Virus record (IMG/VR): IMGVR_UViG_3300017989_002952
Coordinates: 82,891 to 105,615 of that record
DNA: 22,725 bases
Strand: one strand, 5' to 3'
Source: a virus
Lineage: Duplodnaviria; Heunggongvirae; Uroviricota; Caudoviricetes
Part shown: positions 2,405-21,864 of the stretch, one piece after another
Position numbering within the stretch: the first letter of the stretch is position 1
Layout of the letters: every line of letters begins with the position of its first letter
Translations under genes and position numbers: made by a program
The notes under the pieces: model-generated
The model's input: only the letters and a program-made list of their open reading frames with translations
The model's database searches: none
Told to the model about the DNA's origin: nothing

Positions 2405-2839
2405 TTACTCCGAATATTCCGTCATACTTCCATCATTTTCCCAAACACGAATCCAATCTAGGACCAGCCGAGAATCTATTTTATTGACGTAATTTTGTAT
2501 CTTCAAGAATAAGTATTCCGCAAAGACCTCCGCAGTCGGGTCAACATCTTCATCATACAAAACTCTTGTTTTAAACCCAGCCTTGGTTGAAAATTCTTTC
2601 ACTGTAGTGTCAGAATTATTTACTAAAATAGCATGGTCGAACTGATCCAACATTGGTTCTACAATTGTCTTAATATCTTTAAAGTCAATAACCATGTCAT
2701 TGTCATTCAACACAAACGACGAAATTTGTACCTCAAGTTTTAAGTTGTGACCGTGAATATTTTTACAAAGACCTTTGTGTTTACTCAACCTGTGACCCAC
2801 AGGCACTTTAAAGATTTTTCTAACACGCCATATAGCCAT
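2405..2839 (-). CDS. queD: 6-carboxy-5,6,7,8-tetrahydropterin synthase (QueD/PTPS family)
   Basis: GHRL..HKGLCKNIHGHN (catalytic Cys, Zn-binding His residues), FDHAILVN, PTAE, VWE; RBS AGGAGG. Confidence 0.92.
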   Translation of the reverse strand: MAIWRVRKIFKVPVGHRLSKHKGLCKNIHGHNLKLEVQISSFVLNDNDMVIDFKDIKTIVEPMLDQFDHAILVNNSDTTVKEFSTKAGFKTRVLYDEDVDPTAEVFAEYLFLKIQNYVNKIDSRLVLDWIRVWENDGSMTEYSE

Positions 2840-2842
2840 CCG

Positions 2843-3325
2843 TTACCCTCCTTGACATGGTATTGGGTTAAGACTTCTCCAACCGTCGTCTTTCCCCAAA
2901 AAGAATTTTCTATTACCAATAAACAGAGTGCTTTCACCATTCTCACACCCAGTTTCAATTTTACCTTGAAGTTGATAACATGGAAACATTTGAATATCTC
3001 CATAACTATCTTTTTCACCATAAAAGAACTTTGTCTTGTTGATATAGACAATTGCTCTGCCCTCATCATCAACCAACTGACAATCTATGGTTGGTGTGCC
3101 CTGCACCGTTTCAATCTTTTGTTCTTTGTCAGTACTAGTTGTTACGGTAATTTTTACCGGTGAGTTCTCAGAAACAACTCCAGCAATCTCCTTGATGTTG
3201 GCGACGCCTTCTTTTAATTCTTCCTTATTATCCTTGACGTAATCAAGAACAAGACCAGCTATTGCACCAATAATCACAATAGCGATCAACAACTCGAACA
3301 ACGTAAATCCTTTCTGTGATTTCAT
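2843..3325 (-). CDS. Type IV pilin-like protein with prepilin N-terminal cleavage/methylation signal
   Basis: MKSQKG/FTLFELLIAIVIIGAIAGLVL: basic leader, G-F cleavage site, Glu+5, hydrophobic helix; four Cys in the C-terminal domain. Confidence 0.85.
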   Translation of the reverse strand: MKSQKGFTLFELLIAIVIIGAIAGLVLDYVKDNKEELKEGVANIKEIAGVVSENSPVKITVTTSTDKEQKIETVQGTPTIDCQLVDDEGRAIVYINKTKFFYGEKDSYGDIQMFPCYQLQGKIETGCENGESTLFIGNRKFFLGKDDGWRSLNPIPCQGG

Positions 3326-7112: not shown

Positions 7113-8396
7113 TTATATCCTCACAATGTAGCCGGTCTTATTTACTTGGTCAATAACACCTTCTTTCTGAATGACCCATATAATTTTCTTAGGAAGCAAT
7201 TGTCTCGAAATTCCGTTAATATTATCACAACCACCATCTGTGAATGCTAACACAACATCCGGTTTTAACTCACGTGCTCGCTCAAGACCCGGAAACAAAG
7301 TTGTTCCGCCTCGACCTTTAACCTCAAAATCAATATCCCGAACCTTCTTACACTCGTATTCTTTTTGAATCTTTGTGTCATTCTCAATAACCGTCGTCTT
7401 ACAATGACGATCATTTTCAATTATGTTCTTGATTCCTTTTAAACCTTCTTTAATATCGTCAGGCGACATACTACCTGAGGTATCAATCAAGACCACAATG
7501 TTGAATGAGAAGTCTCGAGTCCGACCTGGAAACGGCGAGATCTGAGGGAGATTTTGTTCTCCGATTGCAAACACGTAAGTCCGTTTACGATTAATCCTGG
7601 TAAAAGATCTCTTGAATTTACTTAATCTTGAACCTCTCACCAGTTTTCTAATTACTTGATAATATGGAACTTTTGGGGGAGTGAGCGCCTTATCTATCAG
7701 TTCCTTGACAAATCCCGGTAGCTCACCTCGCTTCTTTCGAAAATTCTTCAAAGAATCTTTGATGATTTCTTCGACATAACCGTCAATCTTTCGTGATAAG
7801 GAGCTCACATCAGCAACCTGAGAGATTGCTTTCCCCCAAGACCCATGATCGTCCACCGCATCATAGTCTTCACCAGCACCACCAAACTGCATTTCACCAC
7901 CCATCTGTTTCATTTGATCTCTGACTTCATCTAACAGGTGATGATAATAATGCTCGGTCGACTTACCATCTTCCATATCATAAATGTCAGGAAAACAACC
8001 CGCCCATGGTTTTCCGGCTATCGTTACTTCCCTTGGCATTTCTATGATAGGATTAACAGCACAATCAGCTGCAGTATTCCAAATCCTAGCCTTGACAAAT
8101 TTAATTTCTTTCGAGACCTCGTTTGAGAGTATTCTCAATAATCTGGACACATGTTTATTCAACACATGCATTCCTTCATGTTCAAGAATTTTCTCTATAA
8201 CTAAATCATCTGTTTCTTTCATCAATGCTGGATTAAATATCAGGGAAATGGTACCATCTCGTTCTGGTCCAACCCCCATTATAGATGGAAGAGTATCTGA
8301 AGCAATGCGACGAATCCTACCAAATAGATAACCCCAATAGCTATGTCGTAATGCCATTTTTGCTATCTGTTTTTTGAGGCGTTCGCTTTGATCCAT
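7113..8396 (-). CDS. DUF2201-type putative metallopeptidase plus C-terminal vWA domain protein
   Basis: HEGMH (HExxH), WNTAADCAVN, acidic DDHGSW linker, MIDAS DTSGSM, GRGGT, FTDG. Confidence 0.85.
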   Translation of the reverse strand: MDQSERLKKQIAKMALRHSYWGYLFGRIRRIASDTLPSIMGVGPERDGTISLIFNPALMKETDDLVIEKILEHEGMHVLNKHVSRLLRILSNEVSKEIKFVKARIWNTAADCAVNPIIEMPREVTIAGKPWAGCFPDIYDMEDGKSTEHYYHHLLDEVRDQMKQMGGEMQFGGAGEDYDAVDDHGSWGKAISQVADVSSLSRKIDGYVEEIIKDSLKNFRKKRGELPGFVKELIDKALTPPKVPYYQVIRKLVRGSRLSKFKRSFTRINRKRTYVFAIGEQNLPQISPFPGRTRDFSFNIVVLIDTSGSMSPDDIKEGLKGIKNIIENDRHCKTTVIENDTKIQKEYECKKVRDIDFEVKGRGGTTLFPGLERARELKPDVVLAFTDGGCDNINGISRQLLPKKIIWVIQKEGVIDQVNKTGYIVRI

Positions 8397-8398
8397 TA

Positions 8399-9631
8399 TT
8401 ATTCTCCCTCTTCATCACGACCTGTTTTGACAATAGCTTCATAAAACATGATCTTATATTCGGGTATTTTCAACATTGCTGAATGAAGCTTTGTAACATA
8501 TTTAAATTCTGGAGTTTTGCGATCCAGACTATCAATATCGGTAACATAAATCGCCGCTGTATCAATAGGCAGGTCAACCAGAAACTGAGCAACATTTTTC
8601 TTCTCTTTGTTCGTATAGTCCGGTCGAGACGTCGTCATAAAAGTTAAGAATGACATCATCACCTCTCCAAGAGATGCGTTATCATTCTCTTTCTTCATAG
8701 CGAGAATCTTTGGTCTCACTTTGACATAATCATAGAAGATATCTTTGGGATTAATTCCCTTACCTTCTCTAAGAAACTCCATAAATTTCGAAGTCATAGA
8801 GACGTTTAACAATCCAGAAGCTAATGCCTCAATTTCAGCCATATGTTTCTCAATACCACCGTTCAATTGAAATTTCCAGAGGTGGTCGGATAATTTCTCA
8901 TAACTCGCTGGGTTTGCATAAACGGCACCGAGTTTCTGAGAATCCCAGTCATAAAGAAAATCAGGATGAGTCTGAATAAACTCAATGATAACTTCATGGA
9001 ATTTTTGCTCAATTGCATACTTCAAGAAATCATTTGCATTTACCTCAACGTATAGATGCAATTGACGTCTTAGACCTGCTGCATCCTCCATTGTATCCAT
9101 TTGATATTCAGAATCATCTGGATTGTCAATGGATATCACAAACCAATGAGTTGGAAAATCCAACAAATGAACTTTATATTCGTTTTGCACCTGCCAGAGC
9201 AACTGCTGCAGGGCATGATCGCCTCTAGAACATTCATCAATGACAAATATTCCATAACTCTCTTTGTCTTTAGGGACAAAATCAGAATACAACATCTTAA
9301 AAGATGTGTCTCCATTATTGATGATTGGAAACGGAATGATAAAATCGTCTCGGGAAAGAACAGGAGCTTTTACCATAATCATTTGAAAATGAACTCCCAG
9401 TTCTTCAGATAATTCATTTGTGATCTGATTTGTTATTTCAGTCTTGCCAACACCAGCCGGTCCTACAATTCTGAAGCATTGTCTTTGTACGTTTCGTCCT
9501 TGTTTCCACGTATTGATTGTGTTTTTAATATCTGCTTTAAGCAACTCCTTGATTTTTGAAATACTTAGAACAGAAATGTTTAACCTTTCGTAATATTTTT
9601 GTTCCTGTACCTGTTCTTCCTCGCTCGGCAT
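8399..9631 (-). CDS. AAA+ ATPase (MoxR-like partner of DUF2201/vWA protein)
   Basis: Walker A GPAGVGKT, Walker B FVIDE, sensor NP, LRR arginine finger; RBS AGGAG; directly upstream of the vWA gene. Confidence 0.88.
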   Translation of the reverse strand: MPSEEEQVQEQKYYERLNISVLSISKIKELLKADIKNTINTWKQGRNVQRQCFRIVGPAGVGKTEITNQITNELSEELGVHFQMIMVKAPVLSRDDFIIPFPIINNGDTSFKMLYSDFVPKDKESYGIFVIDECSRGDHALQQLLWQVQNEYKVHLLDFPTHWFVISIDNPDDSEYQMDTMEDAAGLRRQLHLYVEVNANDFLKYAIEQKFHEVIIEFIQTHPDFLYDWDSQKLGAVYANPASYEKLSDHLWKFQLNGGIEKHMAEIEALASGLLNVSMTSKFMEFLREGKGINPKDIFYDYVKVRPKILAMKKENDNASLGEVMMSFLTFMTTSRPDYTNKEKKNVAQFLVDLPIDTAAIYVTDIDSLDRKTPEFKYVTKLHSAMLKIPEYKIMFYEAIVKTGRDEEGE

Positions 9632-11764: not shown

Positions 11765-11860
11765 GTTAATTGATTATTACTTGTTTTTTACTTGAATAAA
11801 ACTTGACAAATCACTTCTCTAGTAAATTATATATATAGTTTTGTTTATTAAAAATAAAAA

Positions 11861-12181
11861 TTATTCAGCAATAGCCCGAACCGGTTTGACATAATTCAAT
11901 AGGTCAACGACCAAATCTGTTGTCTTAAAAGTATTCAATGCTACTGCAATCGATCTTTTTGCTTCCAAAGGCATTCTCGGATCTGTCAAAGTCATGTGAA
12001 GATTTCCTTGCAGATTAAAAACCATTCCATCTCCTGTCTCTTTGACTTCAACCAAATCTGACCTGTTTATTGTAAGTAAAATTGTGTGTTTTTTGATCGT
12101 AATTGTTTTATCTGGGACCTGTTCCTTCTTTGGTAACTTCTTGTCATTCTTTTTTGATACTCTAGTCACTGAAAGATCCAT
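11861..12181 (-). CDS. Hypothetical protein, last gene of RNAP module
   Basis: 106-aa ORF, RBS GGGG, 20-nt overlap with upstream gene. Confidence 0.7.
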   Translation of the reverse strand: MDLSVTRVSKKNDKKLPKKEQVPDKTITIKKHTILLTINRSDLVEVKETGDGMVFNLQGNLHMTLTDPRMPLEAKRSIAVALNTFKTTDLVVDLLNYVKPVRAIAE

Positions 12182-12761
12182 TCTTTAATTCCCCCTCTCT
12201 GATCTTCGCTTCGATCATCATTTTCGACTTTTCCGTAAGATTTACAAACAAACTAATCATATTGTCTTTATTATATGTTCTCAAAAAATCTGAAATTATC
12301 TGAGGTAAAAAGTGGGATTCAATCTGTTCATCAATTACCAACAAGATTCTATCTGCATTTGACAAGCAAAAATCTCGGATATCAGACCGCAAGTCGATAT
12401 TCATAAATTTCCAAACATCGGCAATGAAATCAACATATTCATACTCTATGAATTTTACAAATTTAAAAATAGATGCGATTTCATTCGGTGTCGGAACCTC
12501 AGGAAGATGTAACTCAATCTCGTATACTTCTTCAACTTTGTCTACCAGATCACGAGCAAGTTCTCTTCTGTCGTCAATATTATAATCATTATTTAAGATA
12601 TTTTGATAATGAGCTTTGAAGTCAGGAGTACCTACTGAGTTAATCAAATCAATAAAATCATATCGTTTAAAAGCTATTTCGTCTGGATATATTTCATCGT
12701 ATTCTTCGCTTTCTGGCTCTTCGACAGTTCCTAATAAAGCTTTCAAACTTTCTTCAGACAT
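12162..12761 (-). CDS. Acidic hypothetical protein downstream of RNAP beta
   Basis: 199-aa ORF, RBS AAGGAG, 9 nt after beta stop; D/E-rich, likely helical. Confidence 0.8.
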   Translation of the reverse strand: MSEESLKALLGTVEEPESEEYDEIYPDEIAFKRYDFIDLINSVGTPDFKAHYQNILNNDYNIDDRRELARDLVDKVEEVYEIELHLPEVPTPNEIASIFKFVKFIEYEYVDFIADVWKFMNIDLRSDIRDFCLSNADRILLVIDEQIESHFLPQIISDFLRTYNKDNMISLFVNLTEKSKMMIEAKIREGELKNGSFSD

Positions 12762-12770
12762 GATATCTCC

Positions 12771-15700
12771 TTACTTTGAAAGAATTAATGCTGTCATATA
12801 ACTTGAGAGCAAATCTCTAGCTGGTGATCCTTTAGCAATACGAAATTCAGCATTGCCCTTTTGGACAATATCAGCAATAATCTCATTTTTTGTCACATGA
12901 TCATCTGACAATGGACCCATTAACTCCGATAGCAGGGTTGGGCAGTTATAAGATATAAATGCGTATGTGTCCATTTCACCCAATCTCTGACCACCTTCTC
13001 GCCTTTTACCTGATGTTGGTTGTTTTGTTTTACCAGTAACAGGTCCTGTGGATCGAGCATGAGTTTTCTCTTCACTGATATGTTCAAGTTTATTGATATA
13101 CATATATCCAACAGGAACAGGTTTCTTTGTTTTTGTATTATATTCTGGTAATGTAAGTTTGTATCCCGTTTTTAATCCAAGAAATTTTATCACTTCATAT
13201 ATATTTTGGTGTGAAGGTGATTTAAATGGTGGCACCATAACAGGAACAAAACCAGAAGCCTGAACCTGCTTCATAAAAGCCTTAAATTTGGCATCAGACA
13301 ATTTTGCAAAATTTGTCAGAAATGTTCCACTAAAATCTTGTTTTGGGCTTCCATCTAATCTTGGAAATACTTTTCTAAAAAGAGTAAGTACTTGAGCTTT
13401 TGTTTTCATTTTTAAAACTTTGTTGCCCAATTCTTTAGAAATCAAACCTGTATATAGTTCAAGCAACTGTCCAACATTCATACGACCAATAATACCAATA
13501 GGATTTACTACAATATCAACTCGGTCGCCCCACGGAGTTCTTGGCATCAATTCTTCTTTTTCAATTAGACCAATAGTGCCCTTTGCTCCAAATCTATTAG
13601 TAAGCTTGTCTCCAATACCAATTCTCAATTCTTGCTCAATTTTAAATCTGACCAACACACCTTTTATTGGTGTTCCTCGAACAGTAACTTTATCTTTAGC
13701 TGATAAACCATGAATACGTCTGGTTCTTCGAATTAGTTTTGTCAGCTCTGGAAATTTATCATCTGCAGTATTTGAGAAGACCTCAATATCAACAATTGTG
13801 CCACCTGGACTCTTTTTGATCATTTGTCCGCCAGCATAATCAACACCTTCTTCATCCTCATCTATACCAAGTAATTCCTCCAGTTCGCCCATTGTCTTAC
13901 GTAAAATTGGTTGACCTTTTTCAACCTTCTCACCAATTTGACTGATAAACAGCAGTCGATCTTTTTCAGAAATTAATACTTCTTCAAAAATCCCATGCAA
14001 AGAAGTCAGGGTGTCGTCACGCACTAAACGATCACTAATAGCAATACTATCCTCAAAGTTATAACCTTTGTAAGGCATAACGGCTACTAATAATGTTCGC
14101 CCAAGAGCAATACTGCCATCAGCCACACAACTACCCTCAGCCAAGATTTGATTGGTTTTAACTGTTTGACCAACTTTTACTTTGGATTGAAAAACACTTA
14201 ACGTATCTTTACCAGATCCAGATCTTAAATGGACAGGAATTATTGAAATGTTTTGTTTTCCACCTTTTGAACACTGAATTGTAATATTATCTCCAGTAAC
14301 AGCGGTCACTTTGCCCGCACACGGACTCTTTTTAACGAAATTCTCCGATAACACATTTGTCAGTAATGATTCATAACCAGATTGAACTACAGGAGGTTCT
14401 GGATCCTTTAAAGGAACAACCTGTTTTTGTTGTGCTGAAAGCATGATAACCCTTGCTCCATCATTATTCTCAACAAATGGAGTGAGGGTTGTAGTTGTGG
14501 ACAATACTCCTGATCCCTCTTTATCTGAAAATTCTTTTGGTAGAAATAATCCCCTCGCAGAAGTCACAAAAGCGTTTACAGTCAAGTGTTGTACAATACC
14601 AATATTTCCACCTTCTGGTGTATCAAGAGGGTCAATATTTCCAAAATAACTATTATGAACACTTCGAGCATTAGTTTGGATTGCTCTCTTATCTGGAATG
14701 CCTCCAACATTCTTTCCAACGGGCGATGTCCTTGTCATCGTAGACATCTCTTCTATTGGGTTGGAATATTCCATATCTTGAACAATTTCTAATTGGTTAA
14801 AGTCAAGAAGAACTTTCTTTTGGTTAATTTTAAATTCAGCATCCTCATTACCAGCTAATCTTTGTTCTCTATAATCTGTATGTGCTGCCTGTACTTGCTT
14901 TTGAACCAAATGGACAATAGTTTCAGAACCTCTGATTCTTTGGTTGGTTAAATCATTTCTATCTTGGACAAATCCCTCAATTACCTTTGTTGCCATATAA
15001 TACATAATATCTTTCAAGTTTGAGGGTAATTGTTTATTGACTAATACTTGCTTTGCAACAGGATCAACCATATTTTCCAACATATTATTAATTAACCAAG
15101 TAGTGTTTACTCTGCCTGTCATGGCAACAAGCAGACTGTCAAAATATTCTTTCGTACCAAATTTCTCTTTTATATCATATGTGTGAACTTTGGCTTTACC
15201 AAAGGAGTCGCAAAACTCCTCTTTTAGTTCAGTATCTACCTTGGTAAATCTGATATATGATTGTCCAATATTGAAGATGAATTTTTCACCTTTCTTTGGT
15301 TTGGTGTCTGTAATTTCATAACCCAATCCATAATCTTTCAATATTTGCTCAAAACCAAAACTGTAAAATGAGATAATCGATAGAGGCAACTTATATGAAC
15401 CAAAGTAGGCTTCAAGATACTTTAAACGTTTTGTCCGCTTACTATGAATTCTGAACTTGGAATATGAACTCTCAAAACGAGACTCATAGGGAGCTGGAAA
15501 TGTAATCGGACATAACACAAGTTGATTAATAAGACACTTCTTTTTACCATAAACTCTAAACGTGCCTGTATTTGGATCAATTTTCGGTATGTCAATTTGG
15601 ACTACGTGAGGCTTTCCGTCTTTATCATTTAGAGTTATTTGAGCTGTTTCAATGTCAGATTTATTAAGCTCTCCCTTTGCATGAGCTTTCTTAATAACTT

Positions 15701-16862
15701 CAACTTTCTTAACAAATAACGGCTGTTCTTTTGATTCCAAAACCTTGAATGAATTTTTCAAATCCTTTTTAAGATTCTTTTGGAAGTCAACTTGTCTTTT
15801 CTGAAAAAGGTGTTCTGGCGTCTTTTTATCGACAGCTTTAGATGGGTTACTTGTAGCAACAAAAACTTCGTCAGTTGATGAAACCGGTTCCTCTGGTTTT
15901 AACATTTCATCAGCATAGTTTTTGTCAACTGCAATGAGAGCTTTACCTAAATTTTTTGGTGCAATTGCTCTTGCCATTGCTGTGGATTTTTGAGGATCAC
16001 CATTCCCTTTTGTAAGGATAGCAGCAATTGCAACTCTTTTAATATCATCACTACTAGCCGCCTTCGACGCGATTTCATCCCGTTTTTTGGGTGAAACCTC
16101 CATGTAATCGGCTATCGCACCTCGAATCGCCGCCTTATTAGCAGGAGTAACCTGGTCACCAATTTCATCCATTACTTCTTTTGTTGTCTCACCAACTTCC
16201 ATTTCTACTTCTGCCTCAACGTGACGGAGCTTAATGGATTTGAGAATTTGATACACTCTTGTGAATTGAAATTCTCTGTCTTTGATAAGAAGTCTATGAC
16301 GTGACCCATTCTCTCCAACTAAGGTCAAAATCATATGATCAAAAGAAAATTCCATATCTTTGAGTTTTCTCAAAACGGGGAATATTTTACGATTAAGTAG
16401 AGACGGCATTTCCTTTGAGATATTAACAGAATACATCAATACTTTTTGGTAATGAGGGGGATATCTATCAAATGCTCTTTGGAGCATATTCATTAAAAGA
16501 AAACCAGCTCTTTGTCTATAATTTGAGACTTTATATGTAGTATCAATAGCGGACATATATTTTGTCACATCGTAGAAGATATTTTGTCCAATCGGGACTT
16601 TCTGGTTTTCATTATAGGCGTATAACCCGTATGTTCGATATAGCTTTTTTGTATCTGGAGCTAACCATGTCCTTGGAACCTTCGTTCTGGGTACAACAAC
16701 ATAACGAGCATCAATAGATCTAATTCCGAGATGTGGATAATCATCAACCAACAAAGAATTCTCAGAAAAATAGACAATGACAAATGGTTCTGCTGCCTTT
16801 TGCGGGAAACGTATCCCTTTGACTAGATGTGTGTATTGTCGTAACCCTTTAAATTGAATCAT
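12771..16862 (-). CDS. rpoB: Viral multi-subunit RNA polymerase beta-like subunit with long N-terminal extension
   Basis: IPKIDPNTGTFRVYG, VHNSYFGNIDPLDTPEGGNIG, GYNFEDS, GDKLTNRFGAKG, KLEH, GGQRLGEMD. Confidence 0.95.
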   Translation of the reverse strand: MIQFKGLRQYTHLVKGIRFPQKAAEPFVIVYFSENSLLVDDYPHLGIRSIDARYVVVPRTKVPRTWLAPDTKKLYRTYGLYAYNENQKVPIGQNIFYDVTKYMSAIDTTYKVSNYRQRAGFLLMNMLQRAFDRYPPHYQKVLMYSVNISKEMPSLLNRKIFPVLRKLKDMEFSFDHMILTLVGENGSRHRLLIKDREFQFTRVYQILKSIKLRHVEAEVEMEVGETTKEVMDEIGDQVTPANKAAIRGAIADYMEVSPKKRDEIASKAASSDDIKRVAIAAILTKGNGDPQKSTAMARAIAPKNLGKALIAVDKNYADEMLKPEEPVSSTDEVFVATSNPSKAVDKKTPEHLFQKRQVDFQKNLKKDLKNSFKVLESKEQPLFVKKVEVIKKAHAKGELNKSDIETAQITLNDKDGKPHVVQIDIPKIDPNTGTFRVYGKKKCLINQLVLCPITFPAPYESRFESSYSKFRIHSKRTKRLKYLEAYFGSYKLPLSIISFYSFGFEQILKDYGLGYEITDTKPKKGEKFIFNIGQSYIRFTKVDTELKEEFCDSFGKAKVHTYDIKEKFGTKEYFDSLLVAMTGRVNTTWLINNMLENMVDPVAKQVLVNKQLPSNLKDIMYYMATKVIEGFVQDRNDLTNQRIRGSETIVHLVQKQVQAAHTDYREQRLAGNEDAEFKINQKKVLLDFNQLEIVQDMEYSNPIEEMSTMTRTSPVGKNVGGIPDKRAIQTNARSVHNSYFGNIDPLDTPEGGNIGIVQHLTVNAFVTSARGLFLPKEFSDKEGSGVLSTTTTLTPFVENNDGARVIMLSAQQKQVVPLKDPEPPVVQSGYESLLTNVLSENFVKKSPCAGKVTAVTGDNITIQCSKGGKQNISIIPVHLRSGSGKDTLSVFQSKVKVGQTVKTNQILAEGSCVADGSIALGRTLLVAVMPYKGYNFEDSIAISDRLVRDDTLTSLHGIFEEVLISEKDRLLFISQIGEKVEKGQPILRKTMGELEELLGIDEDEEGVDYAGGQMIKKSPGGTIVDIEVFSNTADDKFPELTKLIRRTRRIHGLSAKDKVTVRGTPIKGVLVRFKIEQELRIGIGDKLTNRFGAKGTIGLIEKEELMPRTPWGDRVDIVVNPIGIIGRMNVGQLLELYTGLISKELGNKVLKMKTKAQVLTLFRKVFPRLDGSPKQDFSGTFLTNFAKLSDAKFKAFMKQVQASGFVPVMVPPFKSPSHQNIYEVIKFLGLKTGYKLTLPEYNTKTKKPVPVGYMYINKLEHISEEKTHARSTGPVTGKTKQPTSGKRREGGQRLGEMDTYAFISYNCPTLLSELMGPLSDDHVTKNEIIADIVQKGNAEFRIAKGSPARDLLSSYMTALILSK

Positions 16863-19800
16863 TATTTCTTTTCCTCAACCAATGTTCCTGTAAGAACTTT
16901 CTCTAGAATGCTTGGTTCTACCTCTTCCTCGGAAATTAAACCATTACGGATTGCCTCTCCAATATTTTCAAAAGCAAGACCTTGTAGGAAACCGCTAGAA
17001 AATACGACCTTTTTAATATTGACAAGAACAGGATCCCAAGTATTTCCTAATCTAGCTGGTATACTCAAGTTATTTTTATCTCGAATACAATTACTTAGCA
17101 AGCATTCCAAATGAACCATATCCATATCTGCTCCAATTTCAGCATAAACACGGACAAGTTTCAAAATGAGATGGTCAACACTTTTGAATACTTCTTTGCC
17201 TGCAAGCAAACGTTCCACGTATAATGCTTGCTCTTTTAATTCCAAAGCTTCAAGAGGAATTTCTAAAATAACACTTCCGGGAATATAACGGCAATTAATT
17301 GACTTTTTCTTTATAAGCTCGAATTCTTGTTTTTTGATATCAACAGGATAGTCCAGAACCATATTGAACATTTTGTCTTCAAATTCGATTCTTGAGGATA
17401 GACCACTCAACCAAATACTATCCTCTTTTATTTCAATATTTTTGCTTTCAGTATAATCCATTAGATCAATTAGTAATTCACAACCTTTTTTACAGACAAG
17501 AGATCCACCCTCTTGTACAATATATTTCTTAAGAGTGGACATATCTAAATCAGCAATTGGATCATTATTAATAATGTCTTGGAGCATATCCTTTTGTTTG
17601 ATTGTGACAGCTCCGCCTGTGTGGAAGGTGCGCATGATTAACTGTGTGCCCTTCTCACCAATGACCTGCGCGGCCAGTACTCCTACATATGGTGTCCGAT
17701 GTCGTTGTAAGAGTCTACCATAGCAAGTAAGACATAATTTTCTGCTACGACAATAGATTGGACTTCTTAATTGAATCACATCACCAGGCTTGAATTTCTC
17801 TGGGTCAAATTCTGTTACTTTACCTCTATAAATATGAAATCGACCGCTCAATCTACTAATGATATCTTTTGTCAATTTTAATGAAACGGTTTTCTTTGTT
17901 CCACAGTCTCTGAGATGTGTATGGGCTTCTAAATTATTCAATACAAATGCTAGTTTTCTGGACATATAACCTGTAGTCGCAGTATTGATAACTCGGTCAA
18001 TAATTCCTTTTCTAGCTCCTGTTGAGGAGTTAAAATACTCGGTTGGACTTAAACCATCTGCAAACGATGCGGAAATAACAGGGAGGATATTTCCTTCTGA
18101 GTCTGCAATGATACCTTTTGCAACCAGAATCTGCATAGGCTGACCCCAACCTTTTGTTGATCCTGATTCTGTAAGATCGTATAAACCAGAATCTTCAAGC
18201 TTTTTCTTGACAATAGTATACATTTGTTCTAATATCGCCATAGCCTCATCTGTATCTTTGCCTTTTAATTGTTTCTTTAGTTGGTAGACCTTTGCAGGTA
18301 CTTCAAAATCATCCAGCGTAATACTCGACCCCATAATTGTTGCAAATTTAAATCCGAGTTTCTCCATACGAGATATACTCTCTCTTGCAATCTCTCCCCC
18401 ATATGTATCAACCATTTTGGAAATGATACTATTTGCAACCTTTTTTGTTGCTCTCTGATTCACAAACGGGTAATTCCTTGGAAGACAACTATTAAACAAT
18501 GCTTTTCCCATGGTCGTATTAACACCACGAAATTTGACAGCGATATATGGGTCGGTTGCTTTTTCCAAATCTTCTGGAGAAACCTCTTTTGGAGAATTTT
18601 TTGGTTTAACATCTTTTGTGATTGAATATAATCCAACCATCATTTCTTTAGACAAAGAAAATGTGATTGCAGTTGATGATGAACCGGATTCTGCTCTGAG
18701 CATTTTTGCCTTGGCTTCCTCTTGTGCTTCATCTGTTAATGGATGATATAACGCCATTGCATCACCATCAAAGTCTGCATTATGTCCGCCAACCTGCATT
18801 GTACACATTTGAATTGTATTGCCTGTAATCAAGACAGGTTTATATGCTCGCACAGATTCAGCTTGTAATGCCGGGTCACGTTTAGCTAAAACAACTCTAT
18901 CCATCATAGCTACTTCTGTAGCTTCATAAAATATCTTATACAGTGTGTCTGGTATTTTATCACCAGATTTAATTGCTTTTAATACTTTACGAACACTGTC
19001 CACAGATAGTTCAAGCTCGTTAAATGCTTTAATCTCATTAGATAACATTTCCTTATCAATTCGACCAGCATATAATAACTGGTGTAAAATAAACGGCTCA
19101 AACAGTCCCACAGCCATTCTAAACGGAACACCAATTTCATTAACCTTGAGGTCAGGACCTGGTGTAATAACCGCTCTACCGCTAAAGTCTACACGTTTAG
19201 AAAGGAGTTGACTCCTAATAATACCTTGTTTTTTAGCAACCTTAGTATGAATATACTTATGGTGTTCAACAATTGCGGTTTGTAAAGAATAGTTTAAAAT
19301 ATCAAAAAGTGGACCAGAACCAGATGCACTTCTCACTTGTAGAGCTTTTCTCATAATGTCCATATAGACATCATTCATGGTATCAATAGTCCATTGGTCA
19401 TCTTCATCTTTATATGCTGGTCTATGCTCTGGTGGTATGACAGGCAATCTACTTAAAAAGAGTGTTCCTGTTTTATATGCATTTTGAATGACTTTATTTA
19501 GTTTTGTGCGGTCTGTTGTTTCTTCCCTGAATTTGATTTTTGGAAACATTTTAATAAATGCTGCAATACCTGTTACACCATTTTCATCCTCTACTAGCGC
19601 GCCACTAGCATCTAGACTAAAATTCTTCTCTGTTGAAATAAACTTGACTATTTTACCATTGAGGCGTATCAGAATTTTTAATGCCTCCGGATGGATGATT
19701 TTCGCATGCAAATCAATATACGAAAATGTGCTTCTTCTTTCTTTATCTGTGATTCCGAAAATTGATTCAGAAAACAGACCACCAACATGGAACTCGCCTG

Positions 19801-19876
19801 CTCTAGTAAAATATTCAGTTGTTGTAACAGGTTTGAGTTTCTTCGTAAACTCATCCATATTCAGGAATCGAATCAT
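16862..19876 (-). CDS. rpoC: Viral multi-subunit RNA polymerase beta'-like (catalytic) subunit
   Basis: NADFDGD catalytic motif (18761-18781), LPVIPPEHRP, KRVDFSGRAVI, bridge helix GARKG..TGYMSRKL, trigger loop GTQLIMRTFHTGG, second Zn site DCGT...CRSRKLCLTC. Confidence 0.96.
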   Translation of the reverse strand: MIRFLNMDEFTKKLKPVTTTEYFTRAGEFHVGGLFSESIFGITDKERRSTFSYIDLHAKIIHPEALKILIRLNGKIVKFISTEKNFSLDASGALVEDENGVTGIAAFIKMFPKIKFREETTDRTKLNKVIQNAYKTGTLFLSRLPVIPPEHRPAYKDEDDQWTIDTMNDVYMDIMRKALQVRSASGSGPLFDILNYSLQTAIVEHHKYIHTKVAKKQGIIRSQLLSKRVDFSGRAVITPGPDLKVNEIGVPFRMAVGLFEPFILHQLLYAGRIDKEMLSNEIKAFNELELSVDSVRKVLKAIKSGDKIPDTLYKIFYEATEVAMMDRVVLAKRDPALQAESVRAYKPVLITGNTIQMCTMQVGGHNADFDGDAMALYHPLTDEAQEEAKAKMLRAESGSSSTAITFSLSKEMMVGLYSITKDVKPKNSPKEVSPEDLEKATDPYIAVKFRGVNTTMGKALFNSCLPRNYPFVNQRATKKVANSIISKMVDTYGGEIARESISRMEKLGFKFATIMGSSITLDDFEVPAKVYQLKKQLKGKDTDEAMAILEQMYTIVKKKLEDSGLYDLTESGSTKGWGQPMQILVAKGIIADSEGNILPVISASFADGLSPTEYFNSSTGARKGIIDRVINTATTGYMSRKLAFVLNNLEAHTHLRDCGTKKTVSLKLTKDIISRLSGRFHIYRGKVTEFDPEKFKPGDVIQLRSPIYCRSRKLCLTCYGRLLQRHRTPYVGVLAAQVIGEKGTQLIMRTFHTGGAVTIKQKDMLQDIINNDPIADLDMSTLKKYIVQEGGSLVCKKGCELLIDLMDYTESKNIEIKEDSIWLSGLSSRIEFEDKMFNMVLDYPVDIKKQEFELIKKKSINCRYIPGSVILEIPLEALELKEQALYVERLLAGKEVFKSVDHLILKLVRVYAEIGADMDMVHLECLLSNCIRDKNNLSIPARLGNTWDPVLVNIKKVVFSSGFLQGLAFENIGEAIRNGLISEEEVEPSILEKVLTGTLVEEKK

Positions 19877-20316
19877 TATTTAAGACCTTTTAAATAACTA
19901 GACATAGCATTAAAATCTTTTGTGACGTTAGCTTTTCTTGCTGCTTCTGGAGCTGGGGTTGGTATACTCTTAACCAAACGAGCCTTGATACGTCTCAACT
20001 GCCCTAACGTGAGATCAATTTTATCGGCATCAATTTCAGGTTCATTTTTCAATCTCTGAGCGAGTTTCAATGAAAAGTCAACCATTTGTGGATCGGCAAT
20101 CCCCGACACGTTACAAATTGGAAAAGGAATATCACGACCAATAGGATTTGTCATATTGATAAAGCATTTTGGATGTTTTTCTTGTTGAGCCTTTCTCATA
20201 TCTCGATCAAGATACCATTTGAGATCTGAGTGCATATCAAGAGGACTTATGAGTTTATAAGCCTTTCTGAGTAACTCGTCCAGGATTTGAAAGCTTTCTT
20301 CTAGCTTAGTTGTCAT
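19876..20316 (-). CDS. Hypothetical protein translationally coupled to beta'
   Basis: 146-aa ORF, RBS GGGAG, TAATG stop/start overlap with beta'. Confidence 0.8.
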   Translation of the reverse strand: MTTKLEESFQILDELLRKAYKLISPLDMHSDLKWYLDRDMRKAQQEKHPKCFINMTNPIGRDIPFPICNVSGIADPQMVDFSLKLAQRLKNEPEIDADKIDLTLGQLRRIKARLVKSIPTPAPEAARKANVTKDFNAMSSYLKGLK

Positions 20317-20342: not shown

Positions 20343-20350
20343 GTATTTAT
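20343..20350 (-). promoter_or_regulatory. Candidate phage promoter element ATAAATAC upstream of RNAP module
   Basis: TAAATAC 26 nt before ATG 20316, downstream of terminator 20387-20414. Confidence 0.35.
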
Positions 20351-20386
20351 TATTTGTTCTAATCTCCGAACAAAAAATGACGGAAA

Positions 20387-20414
20387 ACGTCCACCCCCTT
20401 TCGAGAGTGGACGT
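20387..20414 (-). terminator. Intrinsic terminator with GAAA tetraloop
   Basis: Minus strand ACGUCCACUCUC-GAAA-GGGGGUGGACGU: 12 bp with two G.U wobbles, followed by UUU and then UUUUUU; 4 nt after a stop codon. Confidence 0.75.
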
Positions 20415-20418
20415 CCTT

Positions 20419-21864
20419 TCAGAAGTCAGCATCCATCTGTCTAGCTATGTTTCTGATCTCGCTATCCAGTTTTCCAGCAAAGAAAAGAGAGTAAAATCTG
20501 ATCATATCAAGCTCAACTTTTGACAATGGTATACCTGACAATTTTGAACCATCAACAACATGACAAAAGTTTATTCTGGATATTCTACCAACAAAATAAC
20601 TCAAAATTTTATGAGGCAGAATTTTTGTATTGAACCCAAAAAAGTTCTTTTGTTTATTGCTCACACTGATATACTCATGGACTTTCTTGACTGTGTAACT
20701 AGTTGCAATAGCAGGTTGTGACGTTGGGTAATATCCAAGAAGAGAAATCAAATGTTTATAATCTCCCCGAAAAATTCTCTTCAACAGACCCATTGTATAA
20801 ACAGATAAAACTGCCGCATGTTCAGGCGACAAAGTTCTGAAATGTGTATAGGGTATTGCCGTAATTCTAGATAATATGGGAAACACAAAGCATTCACACA
20901 AAGGTGAAACATATTCAATTGTGCTTACCCGACTTTGAAAGGAGATAATGAGTTTGTCATCAGGCTCCTGATCGAAAGTCAAAATTGAAGCTCGTTCTAA
21001 TTGTTCATATATTTGCTCGTATGCTATTCCCTTTAACCTACCAAGTGTGTCATTGTACGAATATGTTTTTAGATTATTTATATTGAGTCCATGTATATCT
21101 TCGGTTGAAATTGAGTCGTCGTAAATAATTGACCCTTTGTAAACTGACCTCAAGAACCATTTAACACTTTCCTCAACCACACCAACAAAGTATGTAATAG
21201 GATTCTTGTCTTCTTCACAAAGAATCAGAATAGAGTTCATAATAAAGTTGAATATCTCGATAACGTGAACATCAATGGTTTTACATTGAATCATCTTAAT
21301 GTAATCCCACATATATTTGTCCGTAATATTATACTTAAAGGTCTTCGTCTTGATAACATTGAAGATCTTAAATATGATATCTGTTTCCATAATTTCTTTT
21401 GCAATTTTATTATACACTTTTTTGTGTAATCTCTGACTCAATTTTAAGTTATCCGAGTTGGAGAAAATTGCATAGACTTTGAGATATCCTGATAATCTTG
21501 TGATCATCTCAATTTCGTCAGCTGTAAATAAAATGGAATTCTTTTTAGCTTTACTTTCATCAACAAATTGGCTAAAATCAATTCCAGAATTGTCAACATA
21601 ACTATCAACAAATTCCTTTAATTGTCTCACGTTTTTAAGAAGGGTTGGATATCTATGTTCTTTATTCTCCACATAATCACGAATTAAAGAAACAAACCAT
21701 TTGTCAAATTCTTTTCCGCAAGAACCAGAAACCCTCTCAATAAAACTAGAAACAATATGAAATTTGTTTGTGATAGATGAAGAGGTTAAATTGAGTCGCA
21801 GAATCTCTTTATCTCCTAAAGAAACTAACCACTCTTTTGTAGTGCTTTTCTCAAACTTAATCAC
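20419..21864 (-). CDS. Hypothetical 481-aa protein (candidate RNAP specificity/transcription factor)
   Basis: GTG start with AAGGAGG RBS; no enzymatic motif recognised; appears largely helical; immediately upstream of the RNAP module. Confidence 0.8.
   Translation of the reverse strand: MIKFEKSTTKEWLVSLGDKEILRLNLTSSSITNKFHIVSSFIERVSGSCGKEFDKWFVSLIRDYVENKEHRYPTLLKNVRQLKEFVDSYVDNSGIDFSQFVDESKAKKNSILFTADEIEMITRLSGYLKVYAIFSNSDNLKLSQRLHKKVYNKIAKEIMETDIIFKIFNVIKTKTFKYNITDKYMWDYIKMIQCKTIDVHVIEIFNFIMNSILILCEEDKNPITYFVGVVEESVKWFLRSVYKGSIIYDDSISTEDIHGLNINNLKTYSYNDTLGRLKGIAYEQIYEQLERASILTFDQEPDDKLIISFQSRVSTIEYVSPLCECFVFPILSRITAIPYTHFRTLSPEHAAVLSVYTMGLLKRIFRGDYKHLISLLGYYPTSQPAIATSYTVKKVHEYISVSNKQKNFFGFNTKILPHKILSYFVGRISRINFCHVVDGSKLSGIPLSKVELDMIRFYSLFFAGKLDSEIRNIARQMDADF

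Follow-up and report, generated by a model that had tools for sequence, protein, structure and literature searches.

The last 22.7 kb (22,725 nt; hereafter the window) of the linear 105,615-bp IMG/VR record IMGVR_UViG_3300017989_002952 carries genes for the two large subunits, beta' and beta, of a multisubunit RNA polymerase (RNAP). This pair, which we call set A, is a real, whole, phage-encoded two-subunit RNAP. The record, whose completeness was put at 26% by CheckV, holds two paralogous sets of whole subunit genes in beta'-to-beta order, in a viral context and together with conserved promoter-like motifs. Set A almost certainly belongs to the multisubunit-RNAP-encoding Caudovirales (mReC) of Weinheimer & Aylward 2020 (PMC7481178). 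Judged from profile scores and phylogeny, it is probably an unsplit homologue of the virion RNAP (vRNAP) of the phages phiKZ and AR9, and the second pair, set B, appears to be the homologue of their non-virion RNAP (nvRNAP).

All open reading frames (ORFs) listed for the window lie on the minus strand. The beta' gene of set A (16862..19876, minus strand) encodes 1004 aa without interruption, with the Pfam domains RNA_pol_Rpb1_2, Rpb1_3 and Rpb1_5 and the catalytic NADFDGD at residues 366-372. The beta gene (12771..16862, minus strand) encodes 1363 aa, is likewise unsplit, has a long N-terminal half and carries the domains RNA_pol_Rpb2_3, Rpb2_6 and Rpb2_7. As the Rpb1 domains fall in 19876..16862 and the Rpb2 domains in 16862..12771, beta' lies upstream of beta. 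The genes meet in a TAATG stop/start overlap (16860..16864, minus strand), read directly from the sequence: the minus-strand junction is AAATAATGATT, in which TAA (16864-16862) and ATG (16862-16860) have one base in common, and the overlap is predicted to couple beta' to beta. A preliminary description of this DNA had proposed an unsplit two-subunit RNAP with beta' before beta and a TAATG junction, all of which is borne out by the ORF coordinates and the sequence, with each subunit in a single ORF. The motifs that it listed are also all present at the expected kind of position, including NADFDGD; they are KRVDFS (227), EIGVP (247), KRDPALQ (332), NADFDGD (366), GARKG (620) and GTQLIMRTFHTGG (743) in beta', and RFGAKG (1090) and GGQRLGEM (1290) in beta. 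At the columns of KRVDFS and EIGVP, E. coli and Staphylococcus have KRVDYS and QCGLP.

The double-psi beta-barrel catalytic core, with NADFDGD, GGQRxGEM and FHTGG, is common to set A and the bacterial RNAP, and the best matches among solved structures were bacterial for both subunits (E ~1e-65 for beta' and ~1e-70 for beta), those to archaeal and eukaryotic beta homologues being far weaker. Nevertheless, set A fails the bacterial rpoB-rpoC pattern, for which E. coli and Acinetobacter were compared: the gene order is reversed, the context is that of a phage, neither rplKAJL nor an alpha or omega gene lies close by, and the identity is ~25-30%. Type A also has KRDPALQ in place of NRxPxLHR and RFGAKG in place of RHGNKG, whereas type B keeps the bacterial states. 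GenBank phages gave at best 24-30% identity to the set A proteins by tblastn.

The mReC were delimited by beta and beta' subunits of at least 800 aa, COG0085/COG0086-type matches and NADxDGD (PMC7481178). Set A, with 1363 and 1004 aa, Pfam Rpb2 and Rpb1 domains and NADFDGD at 366, has these features, and it further shares with the mReC a terminase TerL of family PF03237 and a deep position outside Bacteria. Moreover, in metagenome (3300017989), length (105,615 bp) and ORF lengths the record matches contig 3300017989_Ga0180432_10000164 in the supplementary tables of PMC7481178, marked 'included'. The table genes '_b_64' (1017 codons) and '_b_67' (903 codons) correspond to ORFs 64 and 67 of the record (1016 and 902 aa), that is, to set B; for Ga0180432_10000164 the table lists set 'b' only and not the A pair. 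The window pair is of the type that the same table gives for sister contigs as '_a_', with 1364/1005 codons, and the closest relative, a 149,482-bp contig (L008) from the same metagenome, is in the table as well. With A-type pairs of 1364/1005 codons and this very contig in the published tables, the assignment to the mReC holds and the lineage is one already described. The preliminary description is thus supported in its proposal of a deep-branching RNAP of the mReC type, by the contig's presence in the tables and the position of the subunits outside the bacterial clade (see below), and it went astray in suggesting that the exact lineage may be new: the clade is published, and the family comprises more than 120 clusters (90% identity) at 52-84% identity, all ~1000 aa long, one relative being labelled in NCBI as a protein of an archaeal metagenome-assembled genome (MAG). 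An identical beta' is encoded on a contig of 183.5 kb. A library clustered at 50% identity gave 12,786 representatives at E<=0.001, B-type relatives lie on 297 viral contigs, and set A stands among thousands of metagenomic relatives of the phage type. In the A-like clade of that library we noticed many short forms, N-terminal (1-375 or 1-420) or C-terminal (290/369-1000), as well as fused forms of 1100-1800 aa, which suggest repeated fission and fusion, though some of the short forms may be fragments at contig ends.

Set A is therefore already known, down to the contig, and what is added here is evidence that the A and B pairs are whole-subunit counterparts of the two phiKZ/AR9 polymerases, the virion and the non-virion one, along with promoter motifs like those of AR9. 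The text of PMC7481178 makes no mention of phiKZ, gene order, two polymerase sets per genome or promoters, and in the library that we searched no paper links the mReC A/B pairs to the virion and non-virion polymerases of phiKZ and AR9.

Set B lies outside the window at G000:C1:62399-68617 (L006:8399-14617) and consists of beta'-B (68617..65909, 902 aa), an 80-aa ORF and beta-B (65449..62399, 1016 aa). It is also unsplit and in beta'-to-beta order, is ~30% identical to set A, and keeps the bacterial-type motifs NRQPSLHR and RHGNKG. Immediately downstream is a gene for the GTP cyclohydrolase FolE2, and on the upstream side the run begins with a ThiF/E1-like gene. The order beta'-to-beta was found in 80 of 80 B-type loci, in all six close A-type loci, in five distant A-type contigs (30-40% identity, beta of 1312-1441 aa) and in two cultured phages, Carin-5 of Cobetia and YerA41 of Yersinia. 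Thus, the reversed order noted in the preliminary description is real here, but it is a rule of the clade and no peculiarity of this locus.

To place the two sets, profiles of the A and B types were scored against all ORFs of phiKZ and AR9, and the hits were read against AR9's own annotation. The virion pieces scored higher with the A-type profile: AR9 gp144 (A 146.7 vs B 29.7 bits), the AR9 gp188 exon (65.1 vs 7.6), AR9 gp077 (24.6 vs 1.8), AR9 gp124 (16.2 vs 4.0), phiKZ gp180 (101.8 vs 24.8) and phiKZ gp178 (72.3 vs 41.8). The non-virion pieces showed the opposite, namely AR9 gp104 (A 6.0 vs B 73.4 bits), gp088 (94.5 vs 143.1), gp269 (90.9 vs 112.2) and gp153 (86.3 vs 100.9), and phiKZ gp55 (18.1 vs 30.2) and gp74 (45.6 vs 58.4). 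The phiKZ/AR9 nvRNAP, made up of these pieces and further beta pieces of phiKZ, is thus the likely counterpart of set B and not of set A: of the non-virion pieces tested, a single phiKZ beta fragment failed to score higher with the B profile. The N-terminus of beta-A is ~380 residues longer than that of beta-B, and some of this extra stretch (profile positions 210-594) can be aligned with the AR9 virion beta; over its positions 210-705 the A-type beta profile matches the exon of the AR9 virion beta, and it also matches phiKZ gp178.

Maximum-likelihood trees (LG+C20+F+G4) point in the same direction. In both the beta' and the beta tree, Bacteria form a 100/100 clade that excludes sets A and B. 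In the beta' tree, 20 A-like rows, set A of the window and the vRNAPs of phiKZ and AR9 form a clade with support of 98/99, which was also recovered on a smaller set (95/97) and with AR9 alone, phiKZ being removed (97/96). In the beta tree, the AR9 nvRNAP groups with B-like rows (99/97) and a split with 92/88 support places the vRNAPs on the side of A. Holding the virion and non-virion polymerases together was rejected for beta by the approximately unbiased (AU) test (p 0.0037). Long-branch attraction is expected to join the two in the beta' tree, and it does not.

Set A shares with the phiKZ/AR9 vRNAP (phiKZ gp178 and gp180; AR9 gp144, gp188, gp263, gp077 and gp124) the long N-terminal half of beta and, in its close relatives, a separate C-terminal piece of beta'. 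Five of the six close relatives (L009-L013, e.g. at L013:1602-4484) have beta'-A divided near residue 780 between two genes, with 0.3-1 kb holding small ORFs in between. Since the C-terminal piece starts with an ATG of its own and the gaps contain ordinary ORFs, these are split genes, and introns were not detected: group I/II introns were considered as the cause of the interruption, and no Rfam family reached its gathering score in L009-L011, L013 or the window. Residues 782-995 of beta'-A match phrog_2926, which is labelled 'virion structural protein', and the beta'-A profile also matches AR9 gp124, annotated as a virion structural protein. In jumbo-phage vRNAPs, the beta' C-terminus is described as a small virion protein in its own right, like SPN3US gp244 (PMC7598289), and the matches to phrog_2926 and AR9 gp124 probably concern this same protein. 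Some of the relatives have 1-4.7 kb of extra genes between beta' and beta, and in the distant contig L149 the genes between the two include GIY-YIG/NUMOD3 homing-endonuclease-like ones. Differences from the vRNAP are also evident: the latter consists of at least five polypeptides (PMC7598289) while set A has one per subunit and no HD domain; the identity is only ~21-32%; and the vRNAP is packaged, whereas packaging of set A is a prediction. The preliminary description was thus correct that the subunits are whole, unlike the fragmented enzymes of phiKZ and AR9, but it understated the link to these enzymes, of which set A is most likely the unsplit homologue; close relatives of set A already have beta' split at ~780.

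Two kinds of promoter-like motif accompany the polymerase genes. The first, M2 (consensus GAACAWANWATAAA), occurs at eight sites in the record against none in 30 dinucleotide shuffles; seven of the eight fall in the intergenic 6.6% of the record, and each lies 19-86 nt upstream of a gene on the same strand. M2 precedes the gene before the tail sheath gene, the terminase gene and orf102 (19876..20316, minus strand; 146 aa), which is the first gene of the A operon and whose stop shares one base with the start of beta'. The window has two M2 sites where 0.03 are expected. One, GAACAAATAATAAA (20346..20359, minus strand), lies 30 nt upstream of orf102, is of the AR9 late-promoter type and is kept in L008, L009 and L011; the other, GAACATATAATAAA (12267..12280, minus strand), lies 86 nt before orf98, within the 3' part of orf99, and is kept in L008-L012. 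A terminator-like hairpin (20384..20417, minus strand; 15 pairs and a T run) closes the upstream unit, that of orf103, immediately ahead of the M2 site of orf102. The second motif, M1, reads (C)TATATATATTAYT followed by TACTAAG; all of its seven sites in the record are intergenic, and its core ATATATATTAT is identical to that of AR9 at two sites. The single M1 match in the window (0.03 expected), with the core CTATATATATAATT followed by TACTAGAG (11814..11839, minus strand), is of the AR9 early type used by the virion RNAP and faces orf97 and the block of DNA-metabolism genes downstream of the A operon; its position is kept in L008-L012. In AR9, the early promoter of the vRNAP is AAATATATATTAT-N6-G and the late promoter of the nvRNAP is AACA-N6-TA/G (PMC5312081). 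M1 and M2 keep the same relative positions in relatives with 55-84% protein identity, while sites resembling those of sigma-70 are at chance level (43 vs 38.9 expected). We also noticed a conserved ATTGT ~28-30 nt downstream of every M1 site, which may be an element of the 5' untranslated region of transcripts starting at M1.

M1 and M2 would fit a host-independent scheme with two polymerases. We considered the promoter class as a means to tell A (late) from B (early), and discarded it, as sites of the M2 type precede both operons. For the same reason, the motifs assign no enzyme to a promoter.

The reading that we favour, with somewhat better than even confidence, is that set A provides the catalytic core of one of two multisubunit RNAPs of an uncultured large mReC myophage, A being the unsplit homologue of the vRNAP and B that of the nvRNAP, with packaged A firing M1 and B reading M2. 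The A operon (orf102, beta', beta and orf99) would be read from its own M2 site, a motif in common with the tail-sheath and terminase genes, and its product would then be packaged into the virion; packaging seems to us as plausible as its opposite. Once injected with the DNA, the A enzyme would begin the infection by transcribing from the AT-rich M1 promoters, the M2 promoters would be read by the B enzyme, and transcription would be independent of the host polymerase, as in AR9 and phiKZ.

Several points weigh against this reading. Three pieces score on the wrong side, namely the virion beta' C-terminal piece AR9 gp263 (B 113.9 vs A 99.5 bits), the last exon of AR9 gp188 (B 49.3 vs A 39.7 bits) and the nvRNAP beta fragment phiKZ_65693-66595 (A 19.4 vs B 10.7 bits), and the beta profiles compared are of unequal depth (seven A-type sequences, 61 B-type). 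In the trees, which contain no archaeal, eukaryotic or nucleocytoplasmic large DNA virus rows, the phiKZ and AR9 rows have very long branches and derive from concatenated or partial pieces; the nvRNAP beta' rows find no settled placement in any beta' tree; and for beta' (28-row set) a tree with the virion and non-virion polymerases of phiKZ and AR9 together was not rejected (p-AU 0.22). In addition, the B operon has an M2 site with one mismatch 37 nt upstream of its first gene, and four relatives have a perfect M2 at a distance of 1.2 kb upstream of beta'-B.

The alternative that survives best is that A and B are two intracellular phage polymerases, serving different temporal classes or redundant, which arose by a duplication independent of the virion/non-virion pair of phiKZ and AR9, and that A is not packaged. 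The AU result for beta', which leaves room for a single clade of virion and non-virion polymerases, the unsettled nvRNAP beta' rows and the M2-type promoters before both operons all speak for it, as does the fact that the A operon in this record adjoins replication rather than structural genes. Nevertheless, we consider it unlikely: the AU test for beta rejects the very grouping that it calls for, the profile scores for the N-terminal halves of both subunits are strong and one-sided, and the AR9 vRNAP stays in the A clade when phiKZ is removed. Moreover, the split of beta'-A at ~780 in relatives detaches a C-terminal stretch that matches the virion proteins phrog_2926 and AR9 gp124, and the A operon abuts baseplate genes in distant relatives.

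A further alternative is that set A is a bacterial-like core requiring a phage or host factor of the sigma type, as is likely for Carin-5 and YerA41, and thus an ordinary middle or late polymerase that is not packaged. The bacterial beta and beta' as the best structural matches are in its favour, and the RNAPs of Carin-5 and YerA41 resemble set A in being phage-encoded, in their beta'-to-beta order and in having a small gene upstream, which in both phages is annotated as sigma or sigma-like and lies just before beta'; the small conserved orf102 stands at the equivalent position. However, a minimal sigma factor, as which orf102 was considered from its position like those of AR9 gp148 and the Carin-5 sigma, was rejected: its family is unlike both (hhalign probability <1%), and its AlphaFold2 model (predicted local distance difference test score, pLDDT, 72) had no fold match in the PDB at E<=0.001 and no match to a helix-turn-helix or sigma fold. 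Carin-5 and YerA41 (L054 and L055, phages of ~150 kb; beta' of YerA41 is split mid-gene) are sister to Bacteria in both trees, away from the A and B clades, and look like a separate phage RNAP lineage; together with the chance level of sigma-70-type sites, this makes the sigma-dependent alternative improbable. Rhizobium phage TM30 was also considered as a comparable system and set aside, as it has a beta'-like gene only and no adjacent beta.

A cellular rpoB/rpoC on a mis-assembled or mis-classified contig, for which nothing speaks beyond the general similarity to bacterial RNAP and the archaeal MAG label of one relative, is refuted for practical purposes by the phage genes on the contig, with no ribosomal gene among the ORFs scanned and no tRNA gene in the 92 kb checked, by identities to bacterial subunits of at most ~30% and a 100/100 bacterial clade that excludes both sets, and by two paralogous pairs per contig in an arrangement found on hundreds of viral contigs.

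The viral context is evident across the record, which carries a tail sheath, a baseplate wedge protein, a 1628-aa tape-measure-like protein and TerL (Pfam PF03237, T4-type). Neither ribosomal-protein nor other housekeeping genes were detected among the window ORFs, and the ORFs scanned gave no ribosomal-protein gene and the 92 kb checked no tRNA gene, in agreement with the preliminary description of a virus-encoded enzyme without ribosomal-protein neighbours. That description had also proposed a search for capsid and terminase genes on the contig, of which the terminase was found, while the ORFs scanned on this fragment, which is 26% complete, yielded no major capsid protein (PF07068 in mReC). 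The tail sheath (2e-47), TerL, topoisomerase II, VWA/ATPase and helicase genes of the record are shared with AR9. Searches with phmmer against phiKZ and AR9 detected among the record ORFs no homologue of the fifth nvRNAP subunit (phiKZ gp68 or AR9 gp226), chimallin or PhuZ; as the fragment covers only ~26% of the genome, their absence says little. The GC content of the record is 39.3%, and the mReC table has 40.19 in an unlabelled column. Two giant adjacent ORFs (L003:8-11159; 1749 and 1966 aa) contain many internal repeats matching one another at 30-40% identity, and the first of them has hits to PHROG families whose annotation reads virion structural protein or baseplate wedge subunit.

The genes around set A are conserved as well. 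orf102 has syntenic homologues in L008-L012 and 12 homologues in a large protein database, and no Pfam or PHROG match. Upstream, orf103 (20419..21864, minus strand; 481 aa) is a conserved neighbour of A-type beta' genes: it is syntenic in L008 and L010-L012, and homologues with 20-37% identity adjoin the distant A-type beta' genes in L148-L150. It has no Pfam or PHROG family and no usable atlas match, the atlas model having a pLDDT of 0.37. Directly after beta follows the conserved orf99 (12162..12761, minus strand; 199 aa), which has no Pfam or PHROG family match. The other window genes encode the large and small subunits of topoisomerase II, a helicase, SbcCD, QueD, a DUF2201/VWA protein with a MoxR-like ATPase, a pilin-like protein and unknowns. 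The metallopeptidase-like DUF2201/VWA protein and the MoxR-like AAA ATPase (window 7113-9631) also occur as a pair in AR9 (21908-24586), and by this shared occurrence the pair appears to be a conserved module of the wider phage group. A QueD-like PTPS (window 2405-2839), the FolE2 GTP cyclohydrolase (L006:7008-7928) and a GTP cyclohydrolase I in the relative L152 were noticed, and QueD-like PTPS with FolE2 suggests a 7-deazaguanine DNA-modification pathway in the phage group. Between the QueD and topoisomerase II genes lies a 160-aa protein (window 2843-3325) with a type IV pilin N-terminal methylation motif (PF07963, 4.6e-08).

As a published mReC polymerase, set A adds nothing new as such. 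The follow-up bears instead on a question stated in the field, the origin of the fragmented RNA polymerases of jumbo phages, which, according to Sokolova et al., the mReC tree omitted for their long branches (PMC7598289). It is attractive to suppose that the mReC represent the ancestral, unsplit form of the virion and non-virion system of phiKZ and AR9. In such a case the A/B duplication would predate the divergence of these phage groups, fragmentation would be derived, with the beta' split at ~780 in relatives as a first step, and AR9-like promoter classes would be common across the whole span. We give this proposal about even credence, and it runs counter to the view that the split RNAP forms are relics from before the last universal common ancestor (PMC7824862). 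If A is indeed the homologue of the vRNAP and B that of the nvRNAP, an abundant and diverse clade with whole subunits would break the long branches of the phiKZ-like enzymes, and the direction of change would be from whole to split. The mReC would then also offer simpler, two-gene enzymes, along with candidate promoters, for reconstituting a multisubunit RNAP of the virion type, none of which had been purified by 2020 (PMC7598289).

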